A stretch of 64,000 nucleotides of DNA from Bacteroidia bacterium. Lineage in GTDB: Bacteria > Bacteroidota > Bacteroidia > Palsa-965. The position numbers were made by a program, and so were the translations under genes. Below, piece by piece: positions 25,886 through 63,055 of the stretch. How positions within the stretch are numbered: position 1 is the first letter of the stretch; the number at the start of each line of letters is the position of its first letter. A model generated the notes under the pieces. It was given only the letters and a program-made list of their open reading frames with translations, ran no database searches and was not told the DNA's origin. The stretch lies in contig JAKLJE010000012.1 in the NCBI GenBank assembly GCA_023151315.1, positions 27,584 through 91,583 on the forward strand, in the 5' to 3' direction.

Positions 25886-25893
25886 TATATTTG
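25886..25893 (+). promoter_or_regulatory. Candidate Bacteroidota sigma-A -7 box TATATTTG upstream of the hisG leader.
   Basis: It matches the TAnnTTTG consensus. A TTG sits at 25865-25867, about 18 nt upstream. The motif ends 4 nt before the leader ATG. Confidence 0.45.
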
Positions 25894-25897
25894 CCAC

Positions 25898-25954
25898 ATG
25901 AAAATGAACAACACAATGAAACATCACCATCAGTTTGCAGGGCGCAAGCTGTGA
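25898..25954 (+). CDS. Putative his leader peptide MKMNNTMKHHHQFAGRKL.
   Basis: An 18-codon ORF with CAT CAC CAT at 25922-25930. It lies between the promoter box and a terminator hairpin upstream of hisG. Confidence 0.5.
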   Translation: MKMNNTMKHHHQFAGRKL

Positions 25955-25979
25955 TTTTTCATTTGAGAAATATTTCACG

Positions 25980-26010
25980 AGGCTTGCTGTAAAGGCAAGC
26001 CTTTTTTATT
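25980..26010 (+). terminator. Attenuator/terminator hairpin upstream of hisG.
   Basis: AGGCTTGC (25980-87) and GCAAGCCT (25995-26002) form a perfect 8-bp stem with loop TGTAAAG, followed by TTTTTTATTT. A leader segment GCGCAAGCT (25943-51) can alternatively pair with the 5' arm. Confidence 0.7.
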
Positions 26011-26020
26011 TGTTAACGGT

Positions 26021-26887
26021 ATGAAAACAGAAACGAAACTCAGAATTGCAATTCAGAAGTCGGGACGGCTGAACGACGATTCCATCCGGATGCTGAAAGA
26101 ATGCGGAATTGAATTCGACAACGGCTTGAACAAACTGAAAGCATCCGCATTTAACTTTCCACTCGAAGTTCTTTTTCTTCGCGATGATGATATTCCGGAG
26201 TACGTTGAACAAGGTGTAGCGGATATCGGAATTGTTGGTGAGAATGTTCTTGTAGAATCAGGAGCCAAAGTGAAACTTATTGAGAAACTGGGTTACGGAA
26301 AATGCCGTTTGAGTATTGCGGTTCCGAAGGATGTTAAGTATTCCGGGATAAAAGATTTGAACGGAAAGCGTATCGCTACAACTTACAGTCGAGTGTTGCA
26401 GAAATATCTCGCGAAGAATAAAGTGAAAGCAGAGATACACGAAATCAGCGGATCAGTGGAGATTGCAACAGGAATCGGACTTGCGGAAGCAATCTGTGAT
26501 ATTGTAAGTTCCGGCAGCACACTGTTTACAAACGGTCTCAAAGAGGTGGAAACCGTGATGAAATCTGAAGCTGTTCTGATCGGTAACAATAAACTGAATG
26601 CAGCTCAACTGCGTATAGTTGAACGCTTGTTGTTCCGCATCCGTGCATCGAGAACTGCGAAGCGCAACAAGTATTTGCTTCTGAATGCGCCGGACAATAA
26701 ACTTGACACTATCTGCAAATTGATTCCGGGAATGAAAAGTCCGACTGTACTTCCTTTAAAGCAAAAGGGATGGAGCTCTGTTCATTCAGTTATTGATGAG
26801 GAAAAATTCTGGGACATCATTGAGCAGCTTCGTGACGCCGGAGCTGAAGGAATACTTGTAGTGCCAATCGAAAAAATGGTAGTGTGA
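26021..26887 (+). CDS. hisG: ATP phosphoribosyltransferase HisG (long form).
   Basis: N-terminus MKTETKLRIAIQKSGRLNDDS. 288 aa including the C-terminal regulatory domain. Confidence 0.9.
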   Translation: MKTETKLRIAIQKSGRLNDDSIRMLKECGIEFDNGLNKLKASAFNFPLEVLFLRDDDIPEYVEQGVADIGIVGENVLVESGAKVKLIEKLGYGKCRLSIAVPKDVKYSGIKDLNGKRIATTYSRVLQKYLAKNKVKAEIHEISGSVEIATGIGLAEAICDIVSSGSTLFTNGLKEVETVMKSEAVLIGNNKLNAAQLRIVERLLFRIRASRTAKRNKYLLLNAPDNKLDTICKLIPGMKSPTVLPLKQKGWSSVHSVIDEEKFWDIIEQLRDAGAEGILVVPIEKMVV

Positions 26888-28167
26888 TGATAAAGTACAT
26901 TGAATATCCGGATGCGGAGATGTTGAAGTTGCTTCTGCAACGTCCCGTGAACAACAATTCCGCTGACGAATCTGTAGTTGCTTCAATACTTGAAGATGTT
27001 CGTGCGAATGGAGACGCAGCAGTGCGACAATACACCGAGAAGTTCGATCACTGCACAATTGGTGAAATGCTGGTCAGTGAACAGGAAATTTTCAATGCCT
27101 ATCAGGCGGTTTCCATTGAATTGAAAGAGGCGATTGAGACAGCAAAAGCAAATATTGAACGTTTTCACCGAACGCAACACGTAGGCAGTGCACCGATAGA
27201 AACCATGCCGGGTGTTCGATGCTGGAGAAAATCGGTTCCAATTGAAACTGTCGGACTTTATATTCCCGGTGGTTCAGCTCCTCTGTTTTCTACTGTGCTC
27301 ATGCTTGCTGTTCCTGCAGTGATTGCAGGCTGCGGAAGAATCGTGTTGTGTACTCCGCCGGATAAGAACGGGAATATCAATCCTGCGATATTATATGCCG
27401 CGAGTACTTGCGGTGTTTCTGAAATTTATAAAGTGGGAGGAGTGCAGGCAATTGCAGCAATGTATTTCGGAACGGAGTCTGTTCCGCAGGTTTCAAAAAT
27501 CTGCGGCCCGGGAAACAGTTGGGTGACTATGGCGAAGCAACTCATCGCAAAAAACGGATTTCCTATTGACATTCCTGCCGGACCTTCAGAGTTGGCTGTG
27601 TATTGCGATAACACTGTTCCAGCAGAGTTCGTTGCAGCGGATTTATTGTCACAAGCTGAACACGGTGCCGACAGTCAGGTTCTTGTACTTTCAGAAGACA
27701 AAGGAATACTTCAGGAGATAATTGAAGCAATCAAAGTTCAGGTTGATGTTTTGCCTCGCAAGGAGATTGCGATGAAAGCGTTGGCGAACAGTGCAGCAGT
27801 TCTTGTAAAGAATCAGAATGATGCAATGGAAATCTTCAATAAGTATGCACCTGAGCATTTGATTCTCGCATGTGATTCCGCGGAGATACTGGCGCAGCAA
27901 GTAGTGAACGCAGGAAGTGTTTTCATTGGCGCATGGTCTCCGGAGAGCGCGGGAGATTACGCATCGGGAACGAATCATACATTGCCAACCAATGGAAATG
28001 CAAGAGGGTGGAGTGGCGTTTCTGTGGATACATTCGTTCGGAAGATAACTTTTCAGCACCTGAGTAAAGAAGGATTGCAACGAATCGGGAAGACGGTTGA
28101 AGTGATGGCGGAAGCAGAAGGCTTACAAGCGCACAGGAATGCAGTAACAATTCGTTTAGGAAAATAA
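26887..28167 (+). CDS. hisD: Histidinol dehydrogenase HisD.
   Basis: ATG at 26887 overlaps the hisG stop (TGATG). Roughly 426 aa with conserved HisD motifs. Confidence 0.9.
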   Translation: MIKYIEYPDAEMLKLLLQRPVNNNSADESVVASILEDVRANGDAAVRQYTEKFDHCTIGEMLVSEQEIFNAYQAVSIELKEAIETAKANIERFHRTQHVGSAPIETMPGVRCWRKSVPIETVGLYIPGGSAPLFSTVLMLAVPAVIAGCGRIVLCTPPDKNGNINPAILYAASTCGVSEIYKVGGVQAIAAMYFGTESVPQVSKICGPGNSWVTMAKQLIAKNGFPIDIPAGPSELAVYCDNTVPAEFVAADLLSQAEHGADSQVLVLSEDKGILQEIIEAIKVQVDVLPRKEIAMKALANSAAVLVKNQNDAMEIFNKYAPEHLILACDSAEILAQQVVNAGSVFIGAWSPESAGDYASGTNHTLPTNGNARGWSGVSVDTFVRKITFQHLSKEGLQRIGKTVEVMAEAEGLQAHRNAVTIRLGK

Positions 28168-28177
28168 AAGGAAGATA

Positions 28178-29245
28178 ATGTTCAATTTAGAGAAACTGAT
28201 CAGAGCTAACATTCTTGCACTGACACCTTACTCCTCTGCACGCGATGAGTTTAAAGGCGAAGCAAAAGTATTTCTTGACGCGAATGAGAATAGTTTCGGT
28301 TCTCCGGCTGGAGATTCGCATAATCGATATCCGGATCCGATGCAGAAGAATCTGAAGGATCGCTTGTCGGCAATTAAAGGCGTGCCGGCGGGAAATATTT
28401 TTCTCGGCAATGGAAGTGATGAAGTAATCGATATTCTGTTCCGCGTATTCTGCGAGCCGGGACGCGATAATGTGATTATTGTTCCACCCACGTACGGAAT
28501 GTATGAAGTGAGTGCCAACATTAATGCAGTTGAGGTGAGAAAAGTTCCGCTGACGGCAGAGTTTCAGCTGAACGTTGAAGGTATTTCCGAATCGGTTGAT
28601 GAAAATACCAAGTTGATTTTCATTTGCTCTCCGAATAATCCAACCGGAAACAGTATTGACCGAGATGATGTTGAATTCGTGCTCAATAACTTCAATGGCA
28701 TTGTCGCAGTGGATGAAGCGTACATCAATTATTCAAGGCAGAAGTCGTTTATAGCGGAGCTGACAGAATATCCGAACCTGGTTGTGATGCAGACGTTGTC
28801 TAAAGCATGGGGGCTTGCCGGTGTACGCATAGGAATGTTGTTTGCGTCAGATGAGATTATTGCCGTGATGAATAAGGTGAAGCCACCGTACAATATCGGC
28901 ACTCCGGCACAGGAGCTCGCACTAAATGCGTTAAACCGTATTCAGGAAGTAAATGAATGGATTCGCAGTACGGTGAGTGAAAGAGACAGGTTGGTACGTC
29001 AGTTGGCGCACAATCTGTTGATTCGAAAAATATATCCTTCAGATGCTAATTTTCTATTGGTAAAAGTTGATGAACCGAAGAAGGTATATAATTACCTTGT
29101 TGATAAAGGTATTATTATACGAGATCGTTCAGGGGTAACGTTATGCGAAGGATGTTTGCGAATTACCGTTGGTACTCCTGCAGAGAACGAAATGTTGATT
29201 ACCGAGTTGAATAACTATTCGAAACAGTTTTCATTTAATCAATAA
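28178..29245 (+). CDS. hisC: Histidinol-phosphate aminotransferase HisC.
   Basis: 355-aa class-II aminotransferase with the PLP lysine region TLSKAWGLAGVRIG. Confidence 0.88.
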   Translation: MFNLEKLIRANILALTPYSSARDEFKGEAKVFLDANENSFGSPAGDSHNRYPDPMQKNLKDRLSAIKGVPAGNIFLGNGSDEVIDILFRVFCEPGRDNVIIVPPTYGMYEVSANINAVEVRKVPLTAEFQLNVEGISESVDENTKLIFICSPNNPTGNSIDRDDVEFVLNNFNGIVAVDEAYINYSRQKSFIAELTEYPNLVVMQTLSKAWGLAGVRIGMLFASDEIIAVMNKVKPPYNIGTPAQELALNALNRIQEVNEWIRSTVSERDRLVRQLAHNLLIRKIYPSDANFLLVKVDEPKKVYNYLVDKGIIIRDRSGVTLCEGCLRITVGTPAENEMLITELNNYSKQFSFNQ

Positions 29246-29251
29246 AGCGCA

Positions 29252-30364
29252 ATGAAACAGAAACTGCTTTTCATCGACAGAGACGGAACACTAATTTGGG
29301 AGCCGCCGGATACTTTTCAGATTGACTCGTTCAGCAAGTTGAAATTTCTGCCGGGTGTTTTTTACTGGTTGAGAAAAATCGCCGAAGAACTGGATTATGA
29401 ATTGGTGATGGTCACGAATCAGGACGGTCTTGGCACGGCTTCTTTTCCTGAGGATACATTCTGGCCGGTGCAGAATTTCATTGTGCAATCAATGAAGAAT
29501 GAAAACATAATTTTCTCTGAAGTTTGCATCGACAGAAGTTTTCCTGCGGATAGTCTTCCGACGCGTAAACCAGGAACAGGAATGCTGACGAAGTATTTTG
29601 CTCCTGAGTACGATCTGCAAAATTCATTTGTGATCGGAGACCGTTTGACAGACGTGAAACTGGCGAAGAATCTCGGGGCAAAATCAATTTTCATCCGTAA
29701 CTATGATGAAGCGGGAGAATACGCTGCTTCAATAGATCTCATCGCCGAAGATTGGTCGCAAATCTATCAGTTTCTGAAACTTCCTCCTCGCAGAGTTTCT
29801 CATTCACGCAACACCAACGAAACCAGAATAAGCATTGATTTGAATCTGGATGGAAGTGGAAAAGGTAAGATACGAACGGGTCTTTCATTCTTTGATCACA
29901 TGCTGGAGCAACTGGTTCGTCACGGAAATATTGATCTTGATTTGGTAGCAGAAGGAGATCTTCACATTGATGAACATCACACAATTGAAGATACGGGAAT
30001 TGCGTTGGGAGAAGCGTTCACCGCCGCATTGAAAGAGAAGCGTGGAATTAATCGTTACGGATTTCTTTTACCCATGGACGATTGTTTGGCGCAAGTAGCA
30101 GTTGATTTCGGAGGAAGACCATGGATTGAATGGAATGCCGAGTTTAAACGGGAAAAAGTCGGAGACATGCCAACAGAAATGTTTTTTCACTTTTTCAAAT
30201 CATTCAGTGATGCGGCGCGATGCAATCTGAATATTAAAGCAGAAGGTGATAACGAGCATCACAAAATAGAAAGCATTTTCAAGGCCTTTGCGAAAGCGAT
30301 CAGAATCGCAGTGAAGCGGAATCCGGATGATAATTCATTGCCGACAACAAAAGGGATAATCTGA
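29252..30364 (+). CDS. hisB: Bifunctional histidinol-phosphatase / imidazoleglycerol-phosphate dehydratase HisB.
   Basis: N-terminal HAD motif [10 protein letters not shown]-terminal IGPD domain with [14 protein letters not shown]. Confidence 0.9.
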
Positions 30365-30371
30365 TTGACGA

Positions 30372-31481
30372 CTATTTCTGTTCTGGTGATTTAATCGGAT
30401 AATACGTGTTCAGAAGATTGTAGTACGGACCGAAATAGTGATGTGTGAAAATACTTTTACCGTTATCCGGAAAAAGTTTGTGATAGTTTTCGTCCGGCTG
30501 GAGAATAATAGGAATGCCGCATGGATAATAAGCCATGCTCTTTACGTATTTCTGTTTAGGCATACCCGGAATTCGCTTACGCACCAGTTTTCCTGTTTTG
30601 TGAGCGAGATATTTTCGGAATCTTCGTTCCGCTCTTTTTGCTCCGCGGTTCATTTTTTTAATCACGTGATTTCCGATGAGTTTGGCGGGGAATCCAATTC
30701 GCACGCGTTTATCAAATTCCGAAAAAGGATTTCCGGGGCTAAGATCATTTATGGTTTGTACACTGAATGGAACTTCCGGGACCCAATCAGCTGTGTTCAC
30801 TATTCTGAATGCCCATCCGCCCCGCGAAATAAAATCGAAGTCGTATGAATACTTCAGATTTCCGGGTTTTGGTGCAGCACTTCCGTAAACTTTTAATCTG
30901 ATATCTGCAGGAATCGTTACTCCTCGTTTGTAATGAAGATACGAGTACAGCAGAAACGAAATTGCTGCACCTTGTGAATGACCGACGATTATAAAATCGC
31001 GAATACCGTTTTTGTACTGTTCATTGATTTTATCAGTCACGTTTTTAGCAATGCTCGCGAGTCCGATTGTCCATCCGATATGCACATAAGCCAGTGAATC
31101 CTGCGCAAGTTTATAATCGAATAATATTCCGTTTCCCAAGTTCAGCTTTCCGGTTGCGGGAATCATTCCGGCATAGAAATTCTCCAACCAAGAATCATTA
31201 GAAGCAGTAGTTCCCCGCACGCTGATTACTGCCACTGAATCGTTGCTCAGCCACATGTCCCAGCGGTTGTCAAGTCCGCCAACGGTAGAGCGATGAATCA
31301 TATTATATCCGGCAGGATAAGGAACCCGCATTTTATTCCAAGGCGTGTCAATCTGATGAGCACTGATCTGAAACATTTTTCTGAATTCAGCACCGTCAAA
31401 ACCCGGTTGAATACGACGGGCTTCAGCCGCAGCATCAAACTGCAGCAGAAATAGTAGCGTTAAGACGAGAGCTCTGCCCAT
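30372..31481 (-). CDS. Secreted class-3 lipase-like alpha/beta hydrolase.
   Basis: Signal peptide MGRALVLTLLFLLQFDAAAEA. Nucleophile elbow IVGHSQGAAISFL. Encoded on the opposite strand between the two his sub-operons. Confidence 0.7.
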   Translation of the reverse strand: MGRALVLTLLFLLQFDAAAEARRIQPGFDGAEFRKMFQISAHQIDTPWNKMRVPYPAGYNMIHRSTVGGLDNRWDMWLSNDSVAVISVRGTTASNDSWLENFYAGMIPATGKLNLGNGILFDYKLAQDSLAYVHIGWTIGLASIAKNVTDKINEQYKNGIRDFIIVGHSQGAAISFLLYSYLHYKRGVTIPADIRLKVYGSAAPKPGNLKYSYDFDFISRGGWAFRIVNTADWVPEVPFSVQTINDLSPGNPFSEFDKRVRIGFPAKLIGNHVIKKMNRGAKRAERRFRKYLAHKTGKLVRKRIPGMPKQKYVKSMAYYPCGIPIILQPDENYHKLFPDNGKSIFTHHYFGPYYNLLNTYYPIKSPEQK

Positions 31482-31570: not shown

Positions 31571-31578
31571 TATATTTG
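31571..31578 (+). promoter_or_regulatory. Candidate -7 box TATATTTG upstream of the second his leader.
   Basis: TATATTTGCC occurs 4 nt before leader ATG 31583, identical to the hisG arrangement. Confidence 0.45.
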
Positions 31579-31582
31579 CCTT

Positions 31583-31630
31583 ATGATTCTTAAACACATC
31601 TCAGTACATCATCATTTCTTATCGTTTTAA
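31583..31630 (+). CDS. Putative second his leader peptide MILKHISVHHHFLSF.
   Basis: A 15-codon ORF with CAT CAT CAT at 31607-31615. It is followed by a terminator hairpin before the PabA/TrpG-type gene and hisH. Confidence 0.5.
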   Translation: MILKHISVHHHFLSF

Positions 31631-31664
31631 GGAAGCGATGGTAACTCTGTTGATATAAATCAGA

Positions 31665-31690
31665 ACCCGCTTCCAAAGCGGGTTTTTTAT
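31665..31690 (+). terminator. Attenuator/terminator hairpin upstream of the PabA/TrpG-hisH-hisA-hisF-hisIE genes.
   Basis: ACCCGCTT (31665-72) and AAGCGGGT (31676-83) form a perfect 8-bp stem with loop CCA, followed by TTTTTATTAT. GGAAGCG (31631-37), just after the leader stop, is perfectly complementary to CGCTTCC (31668-74) and can form an antiterminator. Confidence 0.7.
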
Positions 31691-31702
31691 TATCTTGAAA
31701 CT

Positions 31703-32287
31703 ATGCCTGATTTCAGAATCTTGATTATTGACAACTACGATTCGTTCACCTACAATTTGGTGCACGAAATCGGGCGAGTGTGTCCTGAGGCATATATACA
31801 CGTTGTGCAAAATGATGTTGTAGATCCGTCGGATTGTTTCAACTACAATTGCATTGTGCTTTCTCCGGGCCCGGGTATTCCTGAAGAGTCCGGAAAATTG
31901 CTGGATGTGATTCGGGTGGCGGCAGGAAAGATTCCTATTCTCGGAGTGTGCCTTGGTCACCAAGCTTTGAATGTTGCATGCGGAGGTCAATTGAAAAATC
32001 TCAGTAAGGTTTTTCACGGCGTGAGTACGCCGATCGTTGTTACCGACAAAGACTCTGTTTTATTCCAAGGTTTTGGAACACAGTTTAACGCAGGTCGCTA
32101 TCATTCCTGGGTGATCGATGAAGAAACGCTGCCGGAGTCATTTACGATTACAGCGCAGGATGAATCAGGTAATGTGATGGCCATCGAAAACAAAGAGAAA
32201 AAAATGTTTGGAATACAATTTCATCCGGAGTCAATCATGACACCTGAAGGCAAACGTATCATACGTAATTTTTTATCCGTTGTATGA
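31703..32287 (+). CDS. Class-I glutamine amidotransferase of the PabA/TrpG type (aminodeoxychorismate or anthranilate synthase component II).
   Basis: The hallmark IIDNYDSFTYNLV is present, with catalytic GVCLGHQ and a His at the expected position in FHPES. Distinct from the HisH gene that follows. Confidence 0.8.
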   Translation: MPDFRILIIDNYDSFTYNLVHEIGRVCPEAYIHVVQNDVVDPSDCFNYNCIVLSPGPGIPEESGKLLDVIRVAAGKIPILGVCLGHQALNVACGGQLKNLSKVFHGVSTPIVVTDKDSVLFQGFGTQFNAGRYHSWVIDEETLPESFTITAQDESGNVMAIENKEKKMFGIQFHPESIMTPEGKRIIRNFLSVV

Positions 32288-32868
32288 AGATCGTAATTGT
32301 TAAATATAACGCTGGCAATGCAACGTCTGTTCGATTTGCGCTGCAACGTTTGGGAGCAGACGCTGTAGTCTCCAATGAACCGGAGATTATCAAGAGTGCA
32401 GATCGTGTGATTTTTCCCGGAGTTGGCGAAGCGTCTTCTGCAATGCAGTTTTTACGCAAAGCCGGACTTGATAATGTGATAAAGGAACTGCGTCAACCGG
32501 TTCTGGGTATTTGCCTTGGAATGCAGTTGATGTGTTCCCAAAGTGAAGAAGGTAATACCGAAGCGCTTGGAATATTTCCTGTTCAGGTGAAGAAATTTCC
32601 TGAAGCTGAATTCAAAGTTCCGCATATGGGATGGAACACGCTGTCCAATCTTAAAGGACCATTGTTTGCAGGCGTTCCCGATCAGGCATTTATGTATTAC
32701 GTACATAGTTTCTATGCCGAACAATGTGCGTATACTATTGCAAGCACTGAATACATTCTGAATTATTCTGCTGCGTTGCAAAAAGACAATTACTTCGGTG
32801 TGCAATTTCACCCTGAGAAAAGCGGCGCTGAGGGAGAACGTATTATCAAAAACTTTCTGGAAGTATGA
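32284..32868 (+). CDS. hisH: Imidazole glycerol phosphate synthase glutamine amidotransferase subunit HisH.
   Basis: N-terminus MKIVIVKYNAGN. GICLGMQ motif. FHPEKSG motif. ATGA overlap with the upstream gene. Confidence 0.88.
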   Translation: MKIVIVKYNAGNATSVRFALQRLGADAVVSNEPEIIKSADRVIFPGVGEASSAMQFLRKAGLDNVIKELRQPVLGICLGMQLMCSQSEEGNTEALGIFPVQVKKFPEAEFKVPHMGWNTLSNLKGPLFAGVPDQAFMYYVHSFYAEQCAYTIASTEYILNYSAALQKDNYFGVQFHPEKSGAEGERIIKNFLEV

Positions 32869-33596
32869 TTGAGATTATTCCTGCAATAGACATTATTGAC
32901 GGCAAGTGCGTGCGACTTACCGAGGGGGATTACCAACGCATGACCGTTTACAATAGCGATCCGGTTGCGGTTGCGTCTCAGTTTGAACAGGCGGGTGTAC
33001 GCCGACTGCATCTCGTGGATCTGGATGGAGCGAAAGCGGGAACAGTGAAGAATCTTGCGGTACTGGAACGCATTGCTGCAGCTACTAAACTTATAATTGA
33101 TTTTGGTGGCGGAGTAAAAACAGAGACAGAAATGAATTCTGTTTTATCTGCCGGAGCTTCTTTTGTAACGGTTGGTAGTCTGGCTGCTAAATCGCCTGAA
33201 GTATTTGAAATGTGGTTGGCAAATTCCGGAGCGGATAATTTTTTCATCGGTGCGGATGTCAGAGCGGGAAAGATCGCAGTGAGTGGTTGGTTGGAGCAAA
33301 CAGATATCGAAGTGGTTGAGTTTATTCGCGATCTGATGAATAAACGGGTGCATTATTTTTTCTGTACGGATATTTCAAAAGATGGTAAACTGGAAGGGCC
33401 TTCGGAAGAGCTTTACAGAATGATCATCGCTCGCTGTCCGGGAATACGTTTGGTGGCGAGTGGAGGTATCAGTAATTGGGAAGATATTTATTGCATGGAG
33501 AAGCTGGGCTGTGAAGGTGTGATAATTGGTAAAGCATTTTATGAAAATCGTATTTCTATCAAGGAAATCGAAAAGTTTAATCTGAACGCTTTGTGA
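32865..33596 (+). CDS. hisA: ProFAR isomerase HisA.
   Basis: N-terminus [18 protein letters not shown]. (beta/alpha)8 fold. Overlaps the hisH stop. Confidence 0.88.
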
Positions 33597-33597
33597 A

Positions 33598-34353
33598 ATG
33601 CTGACGAAAAGAATTATTCCATGCCTTGATGTGAAGAATGGTCGCACCGTTAAAGGTGTCAACTTTGTAAATCTGCGTGACGCAGGTGATGCAGTTGAAC
33701 TGGCTTCGCGTTATGCGGAAGAAGGGGCTGACGAGTTGGTGCTTCTGGATATCTCTGCAACCGATGAAAAACGGAAAACATTAGCAGAACTCGTTAGGAA
33801 TGTAGCAGCAGCGGTGAATATTCCATTCACTGTTGGAGGCGGTATTGTCGGGATAGAAGATGTGCGTTCAATACTTGAAAACGGTGCGGATAAGGTTTCC
33901 GTGAATTCAGCCGCAGTGCGGGATCATCTGTTGATTGATGCGTTGGCGCGCGAGTTCGGAAGTCAATGCGTGGTTGTGGCGGTAGATACGCGTCGCACTG
34001 CTCAAGGGAATCGCGTATTTCTGAATGGAGGAAAGGTTGCAACCGAGCTTGATACTTTGGAATGGATCAAAGAAGCAGAACAACGCGGTGCAGGAGAAAT
34101 TCTTCTGACTTCCATGGATCATGACGGAACGAAGAACGGTTTTGATGTGGAATTTCTGAAAGAGGTTTCCTCATCCGTACGGATACCGGTTATCGCGTCA
34201 GGAGGAGCGGGCACAATGGAACATTTCGCAGAAGCATTTCTTAAATCGGGAGCTGATGCAGCACTGGCAGCGAGTATTTTTCATTTCGGTGAAATCCGCA
34301 TCAAGGACCTGAAGGATTATCTTTACAAGCAAGGAATTCAGATTCGCTTATGA
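33598..34353 (+). CDS. hisF: Imidazole glycerol phosphate synthase cyclase subunit HisF.
   Basis: N-terminus [23 protein letters not shown]. Confidence 0.9.
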
Positions 34354-35003
34354 GAACATTTACTATTGCAGCACTTCTGATTGTATTGATATCAGGATGT
34401 TCGCATTCCAGATTTGTGAAGCCGCTCAATCCGGGGCAACATGCAGTTACTGCTTCGTTCGGCGGACCATTGATAAAGTTCAGCGGTGCGGTAATTCCGA
34501 TTCCGCTTACTTCGATAGGTTACGGGTACGGAGTGGATACAAATCTTACGTTGTTCGGGAATCTGCACACTACTTCATTGTTGTACGGTACAGGACAAGT
34601 TGATGCCGGTGTGTGTTGGAATGTGTTTACCGTAAATCGTTTCGGTTTAAATGCTGCTGTGTCCGCGAATATGACCATGGATAAGTGGGAGAAGAATTTC
34701 AGAGCGTGGCCGGTAGTTGATTTGAATCTCACTTTCGACAGAAAGCAAGGCGGCTATTGGTATCTGGGATGCAATAACTGGATTGAGTTTACAAAGCAGC
34801 GCTCTCATGGCGTGAATCAGGAGCGACAATTGATATTCTCTCCGCAAATCGGGCATATGTTCCTGAAGGAAAAGTGGCGTTTCCAGATTGAAGCAAAATA
34901 CATTTTACCATACGTGAAGAACCAACCCAATGCAGTGGATTACATCGGGTTGAATCACTACGGAGCAACAGGAGTTTATTTCGGACTTTACAGAACATTC
35001 TGA
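34350..35003 (+). CDS. Hypothetical lipoprotein translationally coupled to hisF.
   Basis: Lipobox [10 protein letters not shown]. The ATGA overlap with the hisF stop, the beta-rich sequence and the C-terminal Phe suggest an outer-membrane protein. Confidence 0.5.
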
Positions 35004-35902
35004 TGAGAAATCTGATCATAGCATTCTTAAGCGCAGCGTTGATATTTACTGCCTGTCAGCGCCTTGATACCAATCTGTACAACAGAACTGATAAATTGAC
35101 GCAGTATGAACTGGATGATTACACAGGCGAACAGGATTTCAAACTGGATGCGTCTTACGATATTCCGGATTCGCTTGTTCATGTTTTCTCATTGCAGAGT
35201 CAGGCTGACGGAGAAGGCAGTTCGACCACGATTTATGCAATTTACATTGGTGAAATTTCCAACATAGCAACAGATACAGTGATTCTGTATTGTCATGGCA
35301 ACAAGTGGCATATGGATTTTTACTGGCAACGTGCGAAGTTGCTGGCTCATTGCGGAGGAAAGAATCGCTTTGGTGTGTTGATGATTGATTACCGCGGATA
35401 TGGAATGTCTGATGGAGATCCTACCGAAGAAGGTTTGTATGCCGATGTTGATGCTGCAATGAAATGGTTGCAACAAAACGGGATGAACAATGATCGTTTA
35501 GCGATCTATGGTTTCAGTATGGGAAGTGCCCCTGCAACTGAACTTTGTTCAAAGCCAAGAACATTAACTCCGGGCTGGTTGCTGCTCGAAGCACCGTTTG
35601 CGTCAGCTGCTGTTATGGTGGAAGACGGTACACAACTGGCAATGCCTTCTTCGTATTTCACCAATCTCGAGATTGACTGTGCTGAAGAAATTAAACGTTG
35701 CAATCAGCCATTGTTCTGGACGCACGGGCTAGCGGATATGTTTCTCGGATACAACACGCACGGTCAGGTTGTATATGATAACCATCGCGGTGTGTACAAA
35801 GAATCTCATCCGGTTGACAATGCCGATCACGGAGAAGTGCCTGCGAAAACAGGATTCACAACATATTGCAACAACATCAGCAACTTCATAACACAACATT
35901 AA
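35003..35902 (+). CDS. Alpha/beta hydrolase lipoprotein.
   Basis: Lipobox FTAC. Nucleophile elbow GFSMGS. TGATG overlap upstream and TAATG overlap with hisIE downstream. Confidence 0.6.
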   Translation: MRNLIIAFLSAALIFTACQRLDTNLYNRTDKLTQYELDDYTGEQDFKLDASYDIPDSLVHVFSLQSQADGEGSSTTIYAIYIGEISNIATDTVILYCHGNKWHMDFYWQRAKLLAHCGGKNRFGVLMIDYRGYGMSDGDPTEEGLYADVDAAMKWLQQNGMNNDRLAIYGFSMGSAPATELCSKPRTLTPGWLLLEAPFASAAVMVEDGTQLAMPSSYFTNLEIDCAEEIKRCNQPLFWTHGLADMFLGYNTHGQVVYDNHRGVYKESHPVDNADHGEVPAKTGFTTYCNNISNFITQH

Positions 35903-36495
35903 TGAAACCGGATTATTCCAAATATTCAGACGGACTTGTTCCCGCTGTAATTCAGGACGCAGCTACAGGAGTTGTGTTAATGCTTGGCTTTATGAATGAA
36001 GATGCATTGCAAGCAACTCATTCTTCGGGGAACGTTACGTTCTGGTCGCGCAGTAAAAATCGCTTGTGGACAAAAGGAGAAGAGAGCGGTAATTTCCTCA
36101 GAGTTGTCGATGTTCGTATTGATTGCGATAATGATACGTTGCTCGTTAAAGCAAATCCTGTTGGGCCGGTGTGTCATACGGGTGCTGATACATGCTGGAA
36201 TGAATTGAACACGGGAGATTTTCTCCGTCAGATGGAAAGAGTAATTCAATCGCGAAAAGGCGCTGATCCTTCCACTTCATATACAGCACAATTGTATTTC
36301 AAAGGAATCAACAAGATTGCTCAAAAAGTAGGAGAGGAGGCGGTTGAATTGGTGATTGAAGCGAAGGACGATGACAAAGAAAAGTTTTTGGGAGAAGCAG
36401 CAGATCTGCTGTTTCATTACACTGTTTTACTTTCTGCTAAAGGATTTGCAATTAAAGATGTGGAAGAAGTGCTGAAAGCACGTCACAAGAAATAA
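35902..36495 (+). CDS. hisI: Bifunctional phosphoribosyl-AMP cyclohydrolase / phosphoribosyl-ATP pyrophosphatase HisIE.
   Basis: HisI motif CHTGADTCW followed by the HisE helical domain. Start ATG overlaps the upstream TAA. Confidence 0.85.
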   Translation: MKPDYSKYSDGLVPAVIQDAATGVVLMLGFMNEDALQATHSSGNVTFWSRSKNRLWTKGEESGNFLRVVDVRIDCDNDTLLVKANPVGPVCHTGADTCWNELNTGDFLRQMERVIQSRKGADPSTSYTAQLYFKGINKIAQKVGEEAVELVIEAKDDDKEKFLGEAADLLFHYTVLLSAKGFAIKDVEEVLKARHKK

Positions 36496-41873: not shown

Positions 41874-42263
41874 ATGAAATCACTTTTACCATCACTTTTT
41901 ATCGGCATTTCTTCACTGTTTCTCATCTCGTGTGAGGAAGCGCAGAAAGTTCCTGTCGTGTCAGCAGATCCCGTTCCTCAAACTATCCAGCCCGAAGCCT
42001 ATTCAGCTTCTGCTTTTGAGGTTGTGGACAGTACCGGGAAATTTCTCGGATTCGGTTATGACATTTACAATGGTTCAAAGAAAATGATTCATCAATCCAC
42101 TATTCCGGGAGAACCTGGTGTCAATGGATTCGTAAGCGCTGAAGAGGCAGAACGTGTTGCCAAACTGGTAATTCATAAGCTGGAAAGTAATGCGGGGTTT
42201 CCGACAATTAACAGGGCGGAGCTGGACAGTTTGAAAATAACATTGCAAACAATTACTCAATGA
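41874..42263 (+). CDS. Small hypothetical lipoprotein.
   Basis: Lipobox SSLFLISC. Stop overlaps the start of the first Kelch-like gene. Confidence 0.5.
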   Translation: MKSLLPSLFIGISSLFLISCEEAQKVPVVSADPVPQTIQPEAYSASAFEVVDSTGKFLGFGYDIYNGSKKMIHQSTIPGEPGVNGFVSAEEAERVAKLVIHKLESNAGFPTINRAELDSLKITLQTITQ

Positions 42264-43450
42264 AGAACATTATTACGCTAACCTTATTGTGCATTGTGTT
42301 GGTTGCGGAGGCGCAAACACAATACGGTTGGGTGCAGAAAGCGTCCATCCCGGCAACAGGCAGACATAGATCTACAGCATTGTCTTGCGGCAATCGTGGT
42401 TATGTTGGATTGGGACACATCAATTCCATTGTAGATGTGTTATTCGATGACTGGTGGGAATATGATCCCGGTTCTGATACCTGGTCGCAGAAGGCAAACT
42501 TTGCAGGTGGGTTGCGCTATCATGCAGCAGGATTTACAATAGGAAATGAAATATTCGTTGGAACCGGACGCGCACCAAGTTCTGTTTTGATGAATGATTT
42601 TTACAAATACAGTCCTGCAACAAACACATGGACACCTGTGGCAAGTTTTCCCGGAACAGCACGTCGCGGTGCAGTGTCGTTTGAAATAAATGGCGCCGGT
42701 TATGTAGGTACCGGATCGTACTATGGTGATTGGTACAAATACAATCCTGTTACCAACAGTTGGAGCGGAATTGCATCAGGACCGCCCGCTCGTATTTCAG
42801 GTGTGGGAATGTCGGTGAACGGAAAAGGTTATTGTGGTACGGGTGATGTTGGCGGAAATACAGGAGACTGGTGGGAATACAATCCTGTAACCAATCAATG
42901 GACACAGAAAGCAACATTGACCGGACTTCCGAGAATGGAAGCATGTGGTTTTGCATATGATGGAAAATGTTTTGTGGGCACGGGTGATGATTATTCCAGC
43001 GGAACAAACTATCAGGATTTCTGGTGCTGGAATCCGGTAACGAATGCATGGACACAGGTTACTGATTTCGGTGGTGCTGCGCGCCGTTATCTTGTTGCAT
43101 TAACTATCGGACAGCGCGTCTATGCCGGTACAGGAACCAGCGGAATGAATTACAATGATTGGTGGGAATATGGTTCTATCTCCTCGATTGATGAGCAGCA
43201 GGTGAATGCAGAAGTAGTTGCATTTCCTTCTCCGGCAGTAGAGTCGGTTACGTTGCGATCCGATGTTTTTCCATTGCAGAACATGACTTGTGTTCTCTAT
43301 GACGTGAACGGAAAAGCAGTTCGAATTGAGAATTTCTCCAATGAAGCAATGCCTGTCATTCAGCGCAATGATTTGCCGGCAGGTGTTTACACATTCGTGT
43401 GTACGGCGAATTCTCAATTTGTTTCAACCGGTAAATTTATTTTCCAATGA
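42260..43450 (+). CDS. Kelch/galactose-oxidase-like beta-propeller protein with a T9SS C-terminal sorting domain, paralog 1.
   Basis: Repeats of roughly 45 aa DWWEY(D/N)P.TN.WT.KA.F.G..R (seven to eight copies). C-terminal roughly 80-aa T9SS tail (AFPSPAVESVTL...GVYTFVCTANSQFVSTGKFIFQ). Confidence 0.75.
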   Translation: MKNIITLTLLCIVLVAEAQTQYGWVQKASIPATGRHRSTALSCGNRGYVGLGHINSIVDVLFDDWWEYDPGSDTWSQKANFAGGLRYHAAGFTIGNEIFVGTGRAPSSVLMNDFYKYSPATNTWTPVASFPGTARRGAVSFEINGAGYVGTGSYYGDWYKYNPVTNSWSGIASGPPARISGVGMSVNGKGYCGTGDVGGNTGDWWEYNPVTNQWTQKATLTGLPRMEACGFAYDGKCFVGTGDDYSSGTNYQDFWCWNPVTNAWTQVTDFGGAARRYLVALTIGQRVYAGTGTSGMNYNDWWEYGSISSIDEQQVNAEVVAFPSPAVESVTLRSDVFPLQNMTCVLYDVNGKAVRIENFSNEAMPVIQRNDLPAGVYTFVCTANSQFVSTGKFIFQ

Positions 43451-44658
43451 GAACGCTGCTGTTCATTATTGCGACATTGATTGTAACGAACATTGGTGCG
43501 CAGAATTCGTGGGAGAAGAAAGAAGCGTTCGGCAGCGACAAACGTTCGCGAGGAATAGCATTCGCTATCGGTAATCGCGGTTACTATGGGATGGGTGAGG
43601 ATACTGCCGATATGGTGCGCAATGACTTGTGGGAATATGACCCGGGAACAGATTCTTGGATGCAGAGAGCAACGCTTCCTGCACCGGGAAGAAGAGATGC
43701 CGTTGGTTTTGCGATTGGAAACAAAGGTTATGTAGGTACCGGAATTGATGCTGCTGAATCTTTGTTTGGAAATAACCTTAACGATTGGTGGGAATATAAT
43801 CCTGCAACAAACACTTGGACTCAGAAAGCAACTTATCCTGGAAGTTCTTCATGGGGAGGTATTTATTTCGGTTGCGGATTCACCGTGAACGGGATGGGTT
43901 ATATTGTTGGAGGCAAGCAGGGCAACTCTCAATATGTTGCCGGATTATGGCAGTACAATCCAGCAACTAATTCATGGTTGCAAAGAGCAACTTTCCCCGG
44001 AGGAACGCGCTACGCGATGAGTGCATTCACGATTAATGGTAAAGCTTATGCCGGCTGCGGTACAGATGAAAATATTCTTCAGAACGACTGGTGGCAATAC
44101 GATCCGGTAACGAATATCTGGACCCAGAAGAATAATTTTCCGGGAACAGGCAGATTCGCTGCCGCAGGATTTGCAATCGGACAATACGGTTATCTGTTGG
44201 GTGGATCAGACGGCGGTTACAAAGATGAATTATGGCAATATGATTACACGTCGGATTCCTGGTATCCGAAAGCACCTTATGGTGGCGGAGAACGTCGTTC
44301 GTTGGGTGTATTCGTAATTGCAAACGCGGCTTACGGATGTTGCGGAAGCGGTTTCTCGGGTAAACGCCGCGACGTGTGGCAATACGAACAGTTCCTCACT
44401 GACATCGAGACACGTGACGTGCATACAATTTCAGTTTACCCTAATCCTGCGTCTGATCGCATTACAATCGCAGGTGGTAATACTTCAGCTAGATATTCGG
44501 TTGAGATAATATCAGCGTTTGGAGAAATTGTAAGCATTGAAAATTACAATGGTGTGCAAAACGCAACCATTGATATCGCTGATCTCACTCCCGGATATTA
44601 CATCATCCGCATGACGTCAAACGGCGTTGCAACCAACAGCTCATTCGTAAAACACTGA
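43447..44658 (+). CDS. Kelch-like T9SS-CTD protein, paralog 2.
   Basis: Same repeat architecture. C-terminal tail ISVYPNPASDRITI...GYYIIRMTSNGVATNSSFVKH. ATGA overlap with paralog 1. Confidence 0.75.
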   Translation: MRTLLFIIATLIVTNIGAQNSWEKKEAFGSDKRSRGIAFAIGNRGYYGMGEDTADMVRNDLWEYDPGTDSWMQRATLPAPGRRDAVGFAIGNKGYVGTGIDAAESLFGNNLNDWWEYNPATNTWTQKATYPGSSSWGGIYFGCGFTVNGMGYIVGGKQGNSQYVAGLWQYNPATNSWLQRATFPGGTRYAMSAFTINGKAYAGCGTDENILQNDWWQYDPVTNIWTQKNNFPGTGRFAAAGFAIGQYGYLLGGSDGGYKDELWQYDYTSDSWYPKAPYGGGERRSLGVFVIANAAYGCCGSGFSGKRRDVWQYEQFLTDIETRDVHTISVYPNPASDRITIAGGNTSARYSVEIISAFGEIVSIENYNGVQNATIDIADLTPGYYIIRMTSNGVATNSSFVKH

Positions 44659-44667
44659 TTCATCATT

Positions 44668-45885
44668 ATGAGAAAATATATATTTCTATCCGCCTGTTCG
44701 CTGTTGTTCACCGCGTTCTCTGCAAAAGCCTGGATACAGCGCGATACGATAGGTGGAGGTGCAAGATCTTCTGCGTGCAGTTTCAGCATTGGCAGTGCTG
44801 CCTTCGTCGCTACTGGACTTGATAGCAATTCATTCAAGCGGAGCATGTGGATGTACAATCCGGCTACAGACATCTGGACACAAATGACCAGTCTGGGAAA
44901 TTCCACAGGACAAGGTCTGGAGCGTAACGTGGCAATGAGTTTTTCTATCGGGAATAAAGGTTATGTCGTTGGCGGACAAGGTTCCAACCCTTATTTCAGT
45001 GATACGTGGGAATGGGATTTTGCAACTGACACCTGGTCGCAGAAACAGACTTTTACGGGCGGCGGTCGTCGCGCCGGAGTGGGATTTGCTATCAATGGAA
45101 AAGGATATGTTGGATTGGGGCAATCTTCAACAGGTTTGCGTAACGACATGTGGGAGTACAATCCAACTACCAATCAGTGGACCGCAAAAGCGAATTTCCC
45201 GGGAACAGCAAGAAGATTTCCCGCATGCTTTATCATTGCGAATGTCGCGTACATCGGAACAGGAGATGACGGAGCATTCAAGTCGGATATGTTTGCATTC
45301 GATCCTGCTTCCAATTCATGGACTGCCAAAGCTTCTTTTACAGGAACACCGCGTTATTCAACCGTGAGTTTTTCACTCTTCGGTAAAGGTTATATCGGAC
45401 TCGGTTACGACAATACGTTGCAGAATACCGATGATATATGGGAATACGATCCTGTTGGCAACAACTGGATTTTCAAAGACAATTTCCCGGGATCAAAACG
45501 TGCCAATGCAAGTGCCGTTACAACATCAAACAACAAATGTTACATCGGTTTGGGATATGATTCACTGCTGCGTGATGACTGGTGGGAGTTTGATCCGCTC
45601 GTTGACGGAATCAATGACAACAACGGCCTTGCTTCGCGTGTTGAAGTTTATCCGAACCCTGCTCAGGAATTTGTTACGATCAGTATACCATCAACCGCTG
45701 TTCCGTTCAATTCAGATTATGCAATCCGTATTTATGATGCTGCAGGAAGAACCGTGTACTGCAGTAATGCATTCGGCACCGGCCCGGTGAACGTCAGTCT
45801 GGCAAACTTCAGCAGCGGCTCATATCAGATTGTTCTGGAGAACGAACATTTCGGTCGTGTTACCAAACCTCTGATTGTTCAGTAA
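44668..45885 (+). CDS. Kelch-like T9SS-CTD protein, paralog 3.
   Basis: Same architecture. C-terminal tail VEVYPNPAQEFVTI...SYQIVLENEHFGRVTKPLIVQ. Confidence 0.75.
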   Translation: MRKYIFLSACSLLFTAFSAKAWIQRDTIGGGARSSACSFSIGSAAFVATGLDSNSFKRSMWMYNPATDIWTQMTSLGNSTGQGLERNVAMSFSIGNKGYVVGGQGSNPYFSDTWEWDFATDTWSQKQTFTGGGRRAGVGFAINGKGYVGLGQSSTGLRNDMWEYNPTTNQWTAKANFPGTARRFPACFIIANVAYIGTGDDGAFKSDMFAFDPASNSWTAKASFTGTPRYSTVSFSLFGKGYIGLGYDNTLQNTDDIWEYDPVGNNWIFKDNFPGSKRANASAVTTSNNKCYIGLGYDSLLRDDWWEFDPLVDGINDNNGLASRVEVYPNPAQEFVTISIPSTAVPFNSDYAIRIYDAAGRTVYCSNAFGTGPVNVSLANFSSGSYQIVLENEHFGRVTKPLIVQ

Positions 45886-61789: not shown

Positions 61790-63055
61790 TCAGGCATTTT
61801 CGATTACTCGTTTCATCGCTTCCATTTTCAGCATGCACTCTTCATATTCGAGGTCAGGATCTGAAAGTGATGTTATGGCACTCCCGGCCATTACTGAAAG
61901 ATAACCCGTTTTTGCATTCCAAGTGATGCTTCTGATCACAACGTTGAAATCAAAATCGCCATTTGGACTGATTACACCTACGGTTCCGGAATAGATTCCT
62001 CTGGATTGCGTTTCAAATTCTTCAGCAAGTTGGAGTGCACGTCGTTTCGGCGCTCCTGTCATTGATCCCATTGGAAATGTGTTCCTGATGATTTCTGAAG
62101 TTGTAACGTTGCTGTTAACGCTGCAACGCACGGTTGAAATCATCTGATGAACAGTTTTGAAAGTATAAATTCCAAACAGCTCTGCAACCTCCACCGTTCC
62201 TCGTTCAGCAATTCTGGACAAATCATTTCTGACGAGATCAACGATCATCACATTTTCCGCGCGTTCTTTTGCATCATTCCGGAGTTCATCTTTCAGTCGC
62301 GCATCTTCAATCGTATCGTTGCTCCGTTTGCGCGTACCTTTTATCGGCTGCGAAATAAGCGTTGACCCTGTTCTGTTCATATATCGTTCCGGACTTCCGC
62401 AAATGAGCCAGGAGTTGTTGAATTTATATAACGCACCGAAAGGCGCATCCGTCAATTCCATCAGACTTAGAAAGGCATTAGCCGGATTGAATTCAGTATT
62501 CATTGCGCTGAAGCCCTGACAAAAATTTACCTCGTAAATGTCGCCACGCTGAATATGCCTTAGCAACGATTGCACTCTTGAAATGTATTCTTTTCTGGTG
62601 AGATGTGGTTGTAATTCGACTGAATTCCCGGAAGCTGTTCTCTTTCGGATGTGAGCCAGTCTGTACATGAATGTATTCAGATGAAATTCGCTTTGGTATC
62701 CGATTTCAACGTTGTTGCTTTCGCTGTGGCGAATTACAATTTCCGCATTGAAAAAACCATAATCAGGAAATCCATCAACGTTTGGGAATTGGCAGCGAAC
62801 ATCTGCAGTAGCGGATTTAAAGTTGTACCCGACGTGTCCGAAAACGTACTCATTCCTAGTAGGGTTTTTCAGATCAAGTGCAGCTTCAAAAGTTGCATTT
62901 GTTTCAGAATCGGAAAACGCTGCGATCACGCCGGTTTTCCACCCGTTCGCAGATTTGTTGAAGAATATCGCGTGTTTGTATGCAGAAGTTGCATCGGTCA
63001 GGTTTTCATTTGTGAATAGTCCGGCCATTTCCGGTGCAACCAGTTCGAACTTCAT
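61790..63055 (-). CDS. pabB: Aminodeoxychorismate synthase component I / anthranilate-synthase component I family (chorismate-binding) protein.
   Basis: Chorismate-binding motifs PMGSMTGAPKRRALQL and RGIYSGTVG. Start at ATG (MKFEL) with GGAGA 8 nt upstream; the first track codon is TTG. Confidence 0.75.
   Translation of the reverse strand: MKFELVAPEMAGLFTNENLTDATSAYKHAIFFNKSANGWKTGVIAAFSDSETNATFEAALDLKNPTRNEYVFGHVGYNFKSATADVRCQFPNVDGFPDYGFFNAEIVIRHSESNNVEIGYQSEFHLNTFMYRLAHIRKRTASGNSVELQPHLTRKEYISRVQSLLRHIQRGDIYEVNFCQGFSAMNTEFNPANAFLSLMELTDAPFGALYKFNNSWLICGSPERYMNRTGSTLISQPIKGTRKRSNDTIEDARLKDELRNDAKERAENVMIVDLVRNDLSRIAERGTVEVAELFGIYTFKTVHQMISTVRCSVNSNVTTSEIIRNTFPMGSMTGAPKRRALQLAEEFETQSRGIYSGTVGVISPNGDFDFNVVIRSITWNAKTGYLSVMAGSAITSLSDPDLEYEECMLKMEAMKRVIENA

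Follow-up and report, generated by a model that had tools for sequence, protein, structure and literature searches.

Why does the second half of a his locus begin with a glutamine amidotransferase gene that is not hisH? The stretch of DNA analysed here, 64 kb in length and called the window throughout, carries such a gene directly behind the second of two His attenuators. A preliminary description had classed it as TrpG/PabA, had named a component I gene elsewhere in the window as its likely partner, and had suggested either a glutaminase shared with the histidine pathway or co-regulation through PRPP and chorismate as the reason for its position. The related loci compared below point to a historical explanation instead. 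We consider it likely that the gene is a relic trpG of a trp operon once nested in the his operon, and that it now acts as pabA behind a hisHAFIE attenuator whose leader peptide was recoded from Trp to His.

The amidotransferase gene and its surroundings

The gene is a 194-residue ORF running from ATG to TGA, with the N-terminus MPDFRILIIDNYDSFTYNL. Comparison of HMMs on this ORF and the next one bore out the initial classification. The NCBIfam model TIGR00566 (trpG_papA) scored 182.4 bits against a cutoff of 121.05 and Pfam PF00117 matched with 173 bits, whereas the HisH model TIGR01855 reached 31 bits, below its cutoff of 105.4. The following ORF, which shares an ATGA overlap with the amidotransferase gene, scored 209 bits with TIGR01855 (NCBIfam) and is HisH, as had also been proposed. 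The catalytic triad C83/H174/E176 (GVCLGHQ ... HPES) is present and was invariant across a 78-sequence alignment of relatives, and the closest solved structures were the glutaminase 6qur (160.8 bits), E. coli PabA 8rp0 (152.4 bits) and TrpG 1qdl_B (141.5 bits). All equivalog models remained below cutoff (for instance, 168.5 versus 332 bits for the PabA model NF005946 and 164 versus 265 bits for the TrpG model NF005367). Neither trpE nor pabB adjoins the gene, so its neighbours do not assign it to PabA or TrpG. The two are interchangeable families that are inseparable by sequence (PMC2395257).

The features of the locus are collected in the table below. The promoter box of the hisGDCB unit keeps its spacing to the leader in two relatives, L001 and L087, where leader peptide 1 is also nearly identical (M..NHHHQFAGRKL). 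As the preliminary description had stated, the amidotransferase gene stands directly behind the second attenuator: it heads the hisHAF..IE unit as first cistron, and its start codon lies 10 nt after the end of the terminator U-tract. Further downstream, the two non-his genes nested between hisF and hisIE are kept in L001, L087, L096 and L099 and missing in L088 and L089. A single-sequence AlphaFold model of the first of these proteins had a pLDDT of 29.7, too low to use.

The component I gene singled out as the likely partner proved to be of the PabB type. Its best model was TIGR00553, with 305 bits slightly below the 328-bit cutoff; residues 248-252 read PIKGT, a motif with the catalytic lysine, against PIAGT in the two TrpEs compared, and its best solved relative was the PabB structure 3h9m (269 bits over nearly the full length). 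It lies about 29.5 kb from the amidotransferase gene on the opposite strand, with tilS downstream, a divergent secreted-protein gene on the other side and no pabA on either side. The amidotransferase gene is the only TrpG-type gene in the 64-kb window, and none of trpE, trpD, trpC, trpF, trpB or trpA was found in it. Thus, within the window, the ORF was not a HisH paralog and there was no separate pabA or trpG beside pabB or in a trp operon, the two findings that the preliminary description had named as speaking against its reading. From its sequence and setting, this PabB is the putative partner of the amidotransferase.

Table. Positions of the genes and regulatory elements discussed in the text (numbering of the 64-kb window)
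Feature	Position	Strand	Remarks
-7 promoter box TATATTTG, hisGDCB unit	25886..25893	+	Bacteroidota type; 4 nt upstream of leader 1
His leader peptide 1	25898..25954	+	MKMNNTMKHHHQFAGRKL, then stop; precedes hisG
Terminator of attenuator 1	about 25979..26009	+	10-bp stem and T-run; precedes hisG
hisG	26021-26887	+	NCBIfam equivalog above cutoff
hisD	26884-28167	+	NCBIfam equivalog above cutoff
hisC	28178-29245	+	NCBIfam equivalog above cutoff
hisB, bifunctional	29252-30364	+	NCBIfam equivalog above cutoff
Class-3 lipase gene	30372..31481	-	Pfam PF01764; splits the his locus
-7 promoter box TATATTTG, second unit	31571..31578	+	4 nt upstream of leader 2 ATG
His leader peptide 2	31583..31630	+	MILKHISVHHHFLSF, then stop; 15 codons; His codons 31607-31615; stop 31628-31630
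Hairpin 1:2	31607..31640	+	His codons CAUCAU with GCGAUG around an inner stem
Antiterminator 2:3	31631..31674	+	GGAAGCG (31631-31637) with CGCUUCC (31668-31674)
Intrinsic terminator	31662..31692	+	AGAACCCGCUU-CCA-AAGCGGGUUUU and U-run; G+C-rich hairpin, -14.6 kcal/mol, U6 tail
TrpG/PabA-type glutamine amidotransferase	31703..32287	+	Class I; TIGR00566, PF00117; putative relic trpG, now PabA
hisH	32284-32868	+	TIGR01855
hisA	32865-33596	+	Coupled translationally with hisH and hisF
hisF	33598-34353	+	Coupled translationally with hisH and hisA
217-aa protein gene without assigned function	34350-35003	+	Nested non-his gene between hisF and hisIE
Alpha/beta hydrolase gene	35003-35902	+	Nested non-his gene between hisF and hisIE
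hisIE	35902..36495	+	ATG at 35902 fits 197-aa orthologs; start in the ORF list is TTG 35866
pabB (aminodeoxychorismate synthase component I)	61790..63055	-	ORF extends to 63088; 63055 is the first ATG

The same site in related genomes

Relatives were collected through a protein database, and their contigs, from metagenomes, were then read for gene order. Lineages that share an outer synteny of an ABC-F gene, the lipase, a MORN-repeat gene and a TonB-dependent receptor gene occur in three states: window-like, with a complete trp operon at the site, and further reduced. Window-like loci were L001 and L002 (70% amidotransferase identity), L087 (66%), L096-L098, the contig of cluster P0011 and the deep-branching L099 (57%). 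Among the trp-bearing (trp+) lineages, L088 reads lipase(-) / leader / trpE-trpG-trpD-trpC-trpF-trpB-trpA-DAHP synthase-hisH-hisA-hisF-hisIE; the order is similar in L090 and L091, and L093 and L094 read hisGDCB / lipase(-) / leader / trpE-trpG and onwards. A full or cut trp set thus lies between lipase and hisH in L088, L090, L093 and L094. L089, which is nested among trp+ sisters, has only leader / amidotransferase-hisHAFIE, and its amidotransferase is 84% identical to the TrpG of L088. In L003 and L004 the lipase and the amidotransferase gene are retained, and the his genes, the leader ORF and the terminator are all absent; a hisC-like aminotransferase survives in L003. The position and orientation of the lipase gene are shared by L001, L003, L087-L089, L091, L093, L094, L096 and L099, and this gene serves as a conserved landmark to the left of the site that the trp operon once occupied. 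The arrangement that the preliminary description had called unusual is so only in part: all members of the subclade examined share it (L001, L002, L087, L096-L099 and the contig of P0011), and L089 has it independently of them.

Beyond the family, the order hisGDCB-trpEGDCFBA-hisHAF(IE) occurs in Chitinophaga, Flavihumibacter, Pontibacter and several metagenome-assembled genomes, and trp genes also interrupt the his operon in Thermoflavifilum thermophilum and Filimonas lacunae (Del Duca et al. 2021, PMC8305728). Since these outgroups contain trp, the ancestral arrangement is that with a nested trp operon, and at least three losses of the trp genes other than trpG have followed: one in the window clade with L099, one in L089 and one in L003. 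At the trpG-hisH junction left by the deletion, the two genes overlap by 1-4 nt in the trp-less lineages that still bear the operon (ATGA in the window); trp+ operons show 4-nt overlaps at trpG-trpD and at DAHP synthase-hisH. Bacteroidetes trp operons are reportedly covered by Xie et al. 2003 (MMBR) and Merino et al. 2008.

The window resembles the his-trp-his arrangement of Chitinophagaceae (PMC8305728) in that the trp site lies between hisB and hisH on the same strand. It differs in retaining only trpG from the set trpE-G-D-C-F-B-A at that site, in the opposite-strand lipase that separates its two halves, in the promoter and attenuator of its second half (PMC8305728 describes no internal leader peptides) and in the two non-his genes that it also nests between hisF and hisIE. 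Lacking the full nested trp block, the window is a reduced derivative and not a member of the Chitinophagaceae type.

The position of the gene could also have arisen by independent acquisition, either through insertion of a pabA before hisH or through horizontal replacement of the local trpG. Neighbour-joining trees, which are distance-based, without support values and with long branches, placed the window-clade amidotransferases (with P0022 and L099) apart from the TrpGs of L094 and clade B. In addition, the TrpG of L094 is only 58% identical to the amidotransferase of the window, despite hisGDCB genes that are 92-98% identical between the two. Nevertheless, the nearest proteins are the TrpGs of the family itself (55-61%), and outside groups reached at most 54% among the matches listed; likewise, a search of genome contigs with the amidotransferase returned, among the matches listed, relatives of at most 54% identity, none of them from the family of the window. 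The gene also occupies the exact trpG slot, between the same leader and terminator and hisH, and L089 arrived at the same end state from an undoubted trpG. As for L094, its lipase and everything to the right of it are much more distant from the window, with dS values of 0.5-1.0 rising to 1.7 at the hisB-lipase junction. This jump points to a mosaic, and the contig is best read as a product of recombination or chimeric assembly. We therefore regard independent acquisition as quite improbable and retention of the trpG of the family as the better account.

The amidotransferase is under purifying selection, with a dN/dS of 0.13 at a dS of 0.57 for the L001-L096 pair. No other gene of the locus reaches this value (neighbours, 0.026-0.079), which is nonetheless far below 1; the TrpG of trp+ relatives has a dN/dS of about 0.06. 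Identity to outgroup TrpGs was lower as well, at 46-49% for the window clade versus 52-54% for trp+ copies. Both the higher dN/dS and the greater divergence from outgroups fit the loss of the TrpE partner. The top position in the locus might also be expected of a decaying passenger without function, kept only since its deletion would disturb the translation of hisH. That idea is scarcely credible: across more than 13 diverged clusters the ORF is intact and of constant length (190-195 aa), protein identity is still 53-70% where synonymous sites are saturated, the catalytic triad does not vary, and L003 has kept the gene alone.

Another possibility is that trpE and trpDCFBA moved elsewhere in the genome and that a single glutaminase serves both TrpE and PabB. 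There is a precedent for a single trpG/pabA that supplies both pathways (Slock et al. 1990, as cited in PMC7609029), the protein still resembles a standard TrpG, and the visible portion of the genome amounts to 64 kb. When the TrpEs of L088 and L094 were searched against 5.8 billion proteins, 11 close clade-B clusters and only two L094-type clusters were recovered, and no TrpE clusters matched the 12 window-clade amidotransferase clusters (P0001-P0012) in that set. A search of metagenome contigs with the L088 TrpE and highly specific search patterns found three close loci. P0241, a TrpE-like protein of 652 aa, was rejected as a TrpE of the family and belongs to an unrelated trpB-E-G-D-C-F-A operon. 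The protein searches with the two TrpEs suggest that the window-clade organisms lack an anthranilate synthase. Moreover, a relocated trp operon would normally carry the overlapping trpE-trpG pair along, L003 kept the gene even though it has neither his nor trp neighbours, and amino-acid evolution is roughly twice that of the trp+ lineages by the two measures given above. A glutaminase still shared with a relocated TrpE is thus unlikely. Retention of trpG after loss of the other trp genes remains our preferred account, and the host organism probably no longer makes tryptophan.

The second attenuator and its leader peptide

The promoter box of the second unit was invariant across all aligned orthologous leaders, and a conserved box stood 4-7 nt upstream of each orthologous leader ORF. 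Between 25800 and 36600, the + strand contains three TAnnTTTG boxes, two of which lie exactly 4 nt upstream of leader ATGs. Since the leader ORF begins 4 nt after such a box, the mRNA is probably leaderless or nearly so. A sigma-70 match (TTGACA/TACAAT) inside the amidotransferase gene (31728-31756) was disregarded, as a sigma-70 scan is uninformative for Bacteroidota.

Leader peptide 2 contains three consecutive His codons at codons 9-11. In the free RNA these codons pair with GCGAUG further downstream (hairpin 1:2), in a minimum-free-energy fold of -28.8 kcal/mol for the whole leader region (z = -3.7). In folds of the truncated nascent RNA, taken before the 3' arm of the terminator exists, a ribosome at any of these His codons allowed an antiterminator of -16.5 kcal/mol, compared with -7 +/- 2.6 kcal/mol for shuffled sequences, in which GGAAGCG:CGCUUCC pairing sequesters the terminator's 5' arm. 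When the ribosome was placed at the stop codon in co-transcriptional folds, this pairing was lost and the terminator was free to form. In equilibrium minimum-free-energy folds with a masked ribosome, the terminator usually won. Equivalent alternative pairings were found in L001, L087, L088 and L089. The terminator itself was present in 11 of 11 orthologous leaders (-11.5 to -20.9 kcal/mol), with compensatory changes in its stem (ACCCGC/GCGGGU, GUCCGC/GCGGAC and GCCCGC/GCGGGC). Leader ORF and terminator occur together at these 11 loci and are missing only where the his genes are missing (L003). The region has the anatomy of a ribosome-mediated attenuator, namely clustered regulatory codons, a terminator before the first structural gene and an antiterminator that, in the co-transcriptional folds, depends on the position of the ribosome.

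Because the U-tract lies so close upstream and the preceding gene is on the opposite strand, the amidotransferase gene would be transcribed only through attenuator 2; from this anatomy, the attenuator appears to be its sole transcription route, and the unit that it heads is presumably attenuated in vivo. The layout resembles hisL and trpL of E. coli and Salmonella in its short leader ORF, its tandem regulatory codons, its 1:2, 2:3 and 3:4 pairings and its terminator before the first gene. It differs from them in having only three His codons, in its probably leaderless or nearly leaderless mRNA and in regulatory codons that, according to the comparative data, were switched from Trp to His. In addition, neither the window nor any of five related loci gave an Rfam match at the gathering threshold (His_leader, RF00514; Trp_leader, RF00513). 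A sub-threshold match to Trp_leader (24.7 versus 41 bits) was not accepted as homology, as it was driven mainly by the terminator-like hairpin; His_leader was not listed.

All five trp+ leaders contain KHWWH (MNKITINKHWWHNSNSRIV, MTTININKHWWHNSNSRIV, MKITINKHWWHVSNPRTV, MNKITNNKHWWHTSNSLRTV and MKMNLINKHWWHNLKNLQTV). The Trp pair is absent from the trp-less leaders, which are MNKITINKHCAHISESRTV, MFKQINQWNHHCSSN, MFMQIIQWNHHCTSL, (GTG)KKNSKSQNHHHRI, MSAQLSTIHNVHHAH and that of the window, MILKHISVHHHFLSF. Their motifs are VHHHF, QWNHHC (twice), QNHHHR, IHNVHHAH and KHCAHI, and all but one of these leaders have a run of His codons. Within the window clade, WW is replaced by QWNHH, QNHHH, VHHH or HNVHHAH; in L089, a leader otherwise nearly identical to that of L088 has changed WW to CA (MNKITINKHCAHISESRTV). 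Trp+ and trp-less leaders have kept their promoter box, position and terminator in common, and leaders with Trp runs precede most of the Bacteroidota trp operons examined. For these reasons, we take leader 2 to be the positional descendant of a Trp leader, recoded to His after the trp genes were lost. Among the lineages without trp that kept their his genes, at least two replaced the Trp codons separately. We see an even chance that this represents a natural change of attenuator specificity from Trp to His, through which the promoter, the terminator and the logic of the antiterminator persisted, and that the synthesis of p-aminobenzoate, a folate precursor, has as a side effect long been wired to the charging of His-tRNA. 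In the hybrid trp+his operons, the ..NKHWWH.. leader may sense both Trp and His. The His codon of WWWH was discarded as a mark of dual sensing in nested operons, WWWH being common in Bacteroidota trp leaders with or without his genes.

The opposite reading of the locus is adaptive, and the explanations offered by the preliminary description belong here. In this reading, the gene would have been recruited to the his operon to follow His-tRNA charging, for example so that HisF could share the glutaminase or so that the use of PRPP, chorismate and folate would be coordinated. The arrangement is indeed old and stable, being present in L099, whose HisD is only 65% identical to that of the window, and both HisH and the amidotransferase have diverged with unusual speed within the window clade (64-70% identity versus 88-89% for HisA and HisF). 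However, an intact canonical HisH is encoded immediately downstream, and deletion from a nested trp operon fully explains the position of the gene. The loss of the attenuator together with the his genes in L003, where the amidotransferase gene stayed, shows that the attenuator goes with the his genes rather than with the amidotransferase gene. We find recruitment for His control highly improbable and favour the historical account drawn from the trp+ loci of the relatives, in which the amidotransferase gene is what remained of trp.

Proposed history and role of the amidotransferase gene

According to this account, the ancestral locus would have consisted of hisGDCB, the opposite-strand lipase gene, a promoter, a Trp/His leader (..NKHWWH..), trpE-G-D-C-F-B-A and hisH-hisA-hisF-hisIE, and a DAHP synthase gene would have been added to the trp block in some members of the family. 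In the lineage of the window, a clean deletion of trpE and of trpD to trpA would then have left trpG right behind the attenuator, joined to hisH by ATGA, and the leader peptide would have lost its Trp codons and gained its run of His codons. We propose that trpG survived because it had a second job, most likely the supply of glutamine-derived ammonia to PabB for the synthesis of p-aminobenzoate and folate. The repeated retention of the gene in spite of trp loss, and in L003 of his loss, argues for a function outside both pathways. PabA is the obvious candidate, since the PabB of the window has no glutaminase gene of its own, the TrpG and PabA families are interchangeable, and the B. subtilis protein has a dual role. 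On these grounds the amidotransferase is a putative PabA.

As to its expression, stalling of the ribosome at codons 9-11 would let GGAAGCG pair with CGCUUCC and block the terminator, and a ribosome that reached the stop codon would cover GGAAGCG, so that the terminator could form. Control of pabA by histidine would then be a by-product of its position. It may be tolerated, as basal read-through should suffice for a low-flux cofactor pathway.

The closest known parallel for the gene itself is trpG (pabA) of B. subtilis, which is described as amphibolic and as part of the folate operon, at a distance from trpE (Slock et al. 1990, J Bacteriol 172:7211, as cited in PMC7609029). In both cases, a lone TrpG/PabA glutaminase that is encoded apart from its usual component I partners serves, or in the window would serve, PabB. 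The B. subtilis gene, on the same account, lies with pab and fol genes and serves TrpE too, whereas that of the window lies in a His-attenuated his operon and TrpE is apparently absent. The ingredients, namely a trp operon nested in a his operon, a dual-use trpG/pabA and leader-peptide attenuation, are all known. Their combination is new and recurs in several lineages; in the literature searched, we found no description of a lone trpG in a his operon behind a leader recoded from Trp to His.

The locus illustrates that a gene which looks out of place in a biosynthetic operon can be a remnant of earlier gene order and no designed coupling, and it calls for caution in deducing function from operon membership alone. 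The related loci form a natural series in which the re-coding of a leader-peptide attenuator can be followed as the content of its operon changes. They also reflect stepwise pathway loss in uncultured Bacteroidota, where survival falls to genes that have a further task, such as trpG as pabA and the hisC-like aminotransferase of L003. The surviving genes point to a probable auxotrophy for tryptophan in these organisms and, in L003, for histidine too.

Leader elements of trp and hybrid trp-his operons

A scan of 66 trp operons from Bacteroidota located short leader ORFs with a WW or WWW run ahead of trpE (or trpB) in 57 cases, mostly accompanied by a terminator. None of the Rfam families detected these Trp leader elements. 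In the Chitinophaga-type nested operons, the internal Trp attenuator was located between hisB and trpE and, therefore, would gate hisHAFIE as well.

In the window's own family, the relatives that carry a trp operon nested in the his operon presented a common leader motif, KHWWH, in which two Trp codons have His codons on either side (5/5 leaders). Judging from the codon content, a single attenuator of this type could sense both Trp and His and place the genes of both pathways under its control. However, a His codon commonly follows the Trp run in those Bacteroidota trp leaders, too, that have no his genes behind them and, for this reason, dual sensing by the KHWWH leaders is unproven. In two of these loci, the gene for DAHP synthase, the first step of the shikimate pathway, overlapped both trpA and hisH, and thus belongs to the hybrid operon.

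A TAnnTTTG box, the Bacteroidota -7 promoter element, was present 4-7 nt upstream of every leader ORF start, both in the window and at the orthologous sites. Since the ORFs start so close to this box, the mRNAs that encode the leader peptides are probably leaderless, or almost so, and lack a Shine-Dalgarno sequence. Regarding the window attenuator, the best Rfam match of 31633-31691 was the enterobacterial Trp_leader (RF00513; 24.7 bits, E = 0.004), well under the gathering score of 41 bits, and it probably reflects merely a similar terminator hairpin.

Coordinates of leaders, promoter boxes and associated genes
Feature	Position	Context
KHWWH-containing leader	L088:5826-5885	hybrid operon
KHWWH-containing leader	L090:5192-5251	hybrid operon
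KHWWH-containing leader	L091:1332-1388	hybrid operon
KHWWH-containing leader	L093:9864-9926	hybrid operon
KHWWH-containing leader	L094:5742-5804	hybrid operon
DAHP synthase gene	L088:12272-13288	clade-B operon, between trpA and hisH
DAHP synthase gene	L090:11750-12760	clade-B operon, between trpA and hisH
WW/WWW leader (examples)	L005:8402, L009:8442, L027:8361, L048:8451	among the 66 scanned trp loci
TAnnTTTG box and leader start	25886-25900	window
TAnnTTTG box and leader start	31571-31585	window
Two translationally coupled non-his genes	34350-35902	window, between hisF and hisIE

Uneven divergence and nested genes

Compared with L001 and L087, two members of the window clade, HisH (32284-32868) showed 64% identity, while HisA, HisF and the lipase reached 77-90%. 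The adjoining amidotransferase gene was likewise much more diverged within the clade. The leader-amidotransferase-hisH segment seems to be a hot spot of local change. Between the hybrid-operon relative L094 (1-5607) and the window (26021-31481), the hisGDCB proteins were 92-98% identical (dS 0.5-1.0), divergence rose to dS 1.7 from the lipase gene onward, and the right side of L094 held a full trp operon. This mosaic represents either a recombination breakpoint at the hisB/lipase junction or a chimeric metagenome contig.

The gene pair nested between hisF and hisIE was kept in four relatives (L001, L087, L096 and L099) with 49-95% identity and dN/dS of 0.03-0.07, and was absent from the L088 and L089 loci. 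One gene encodes a 217-aa protein that had no match in Pfam or NCBIfam and whose single-sequence AlphaFold model reached a pLDDT of only 29.7; the second encodes an alpha/beta hydrolase (PF12146/PF00561). Elsewhere in the window, three tandem paralogous Kelch-repeat genes (42260-45885), two of which carry a C-terminal sorting domain for type IX secretion, adjoined a DUF4907 gene, an arrangement also seen in related loci.

Gene loss in L003 and L004

In L003 (2763-10576) and L004, hisG, hisD, hisB and hisHAFIE were all lost. The survivors were the amidotransferase gene and a hisC-like aminotransferase gene, whose product was 63% identical to the window HisC. Plausibly, these are two genes with second jobs, as PabA and as an aromatic aminotransferase, respectively. 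The losses suggest a combined auxotrophy for His and Trp.
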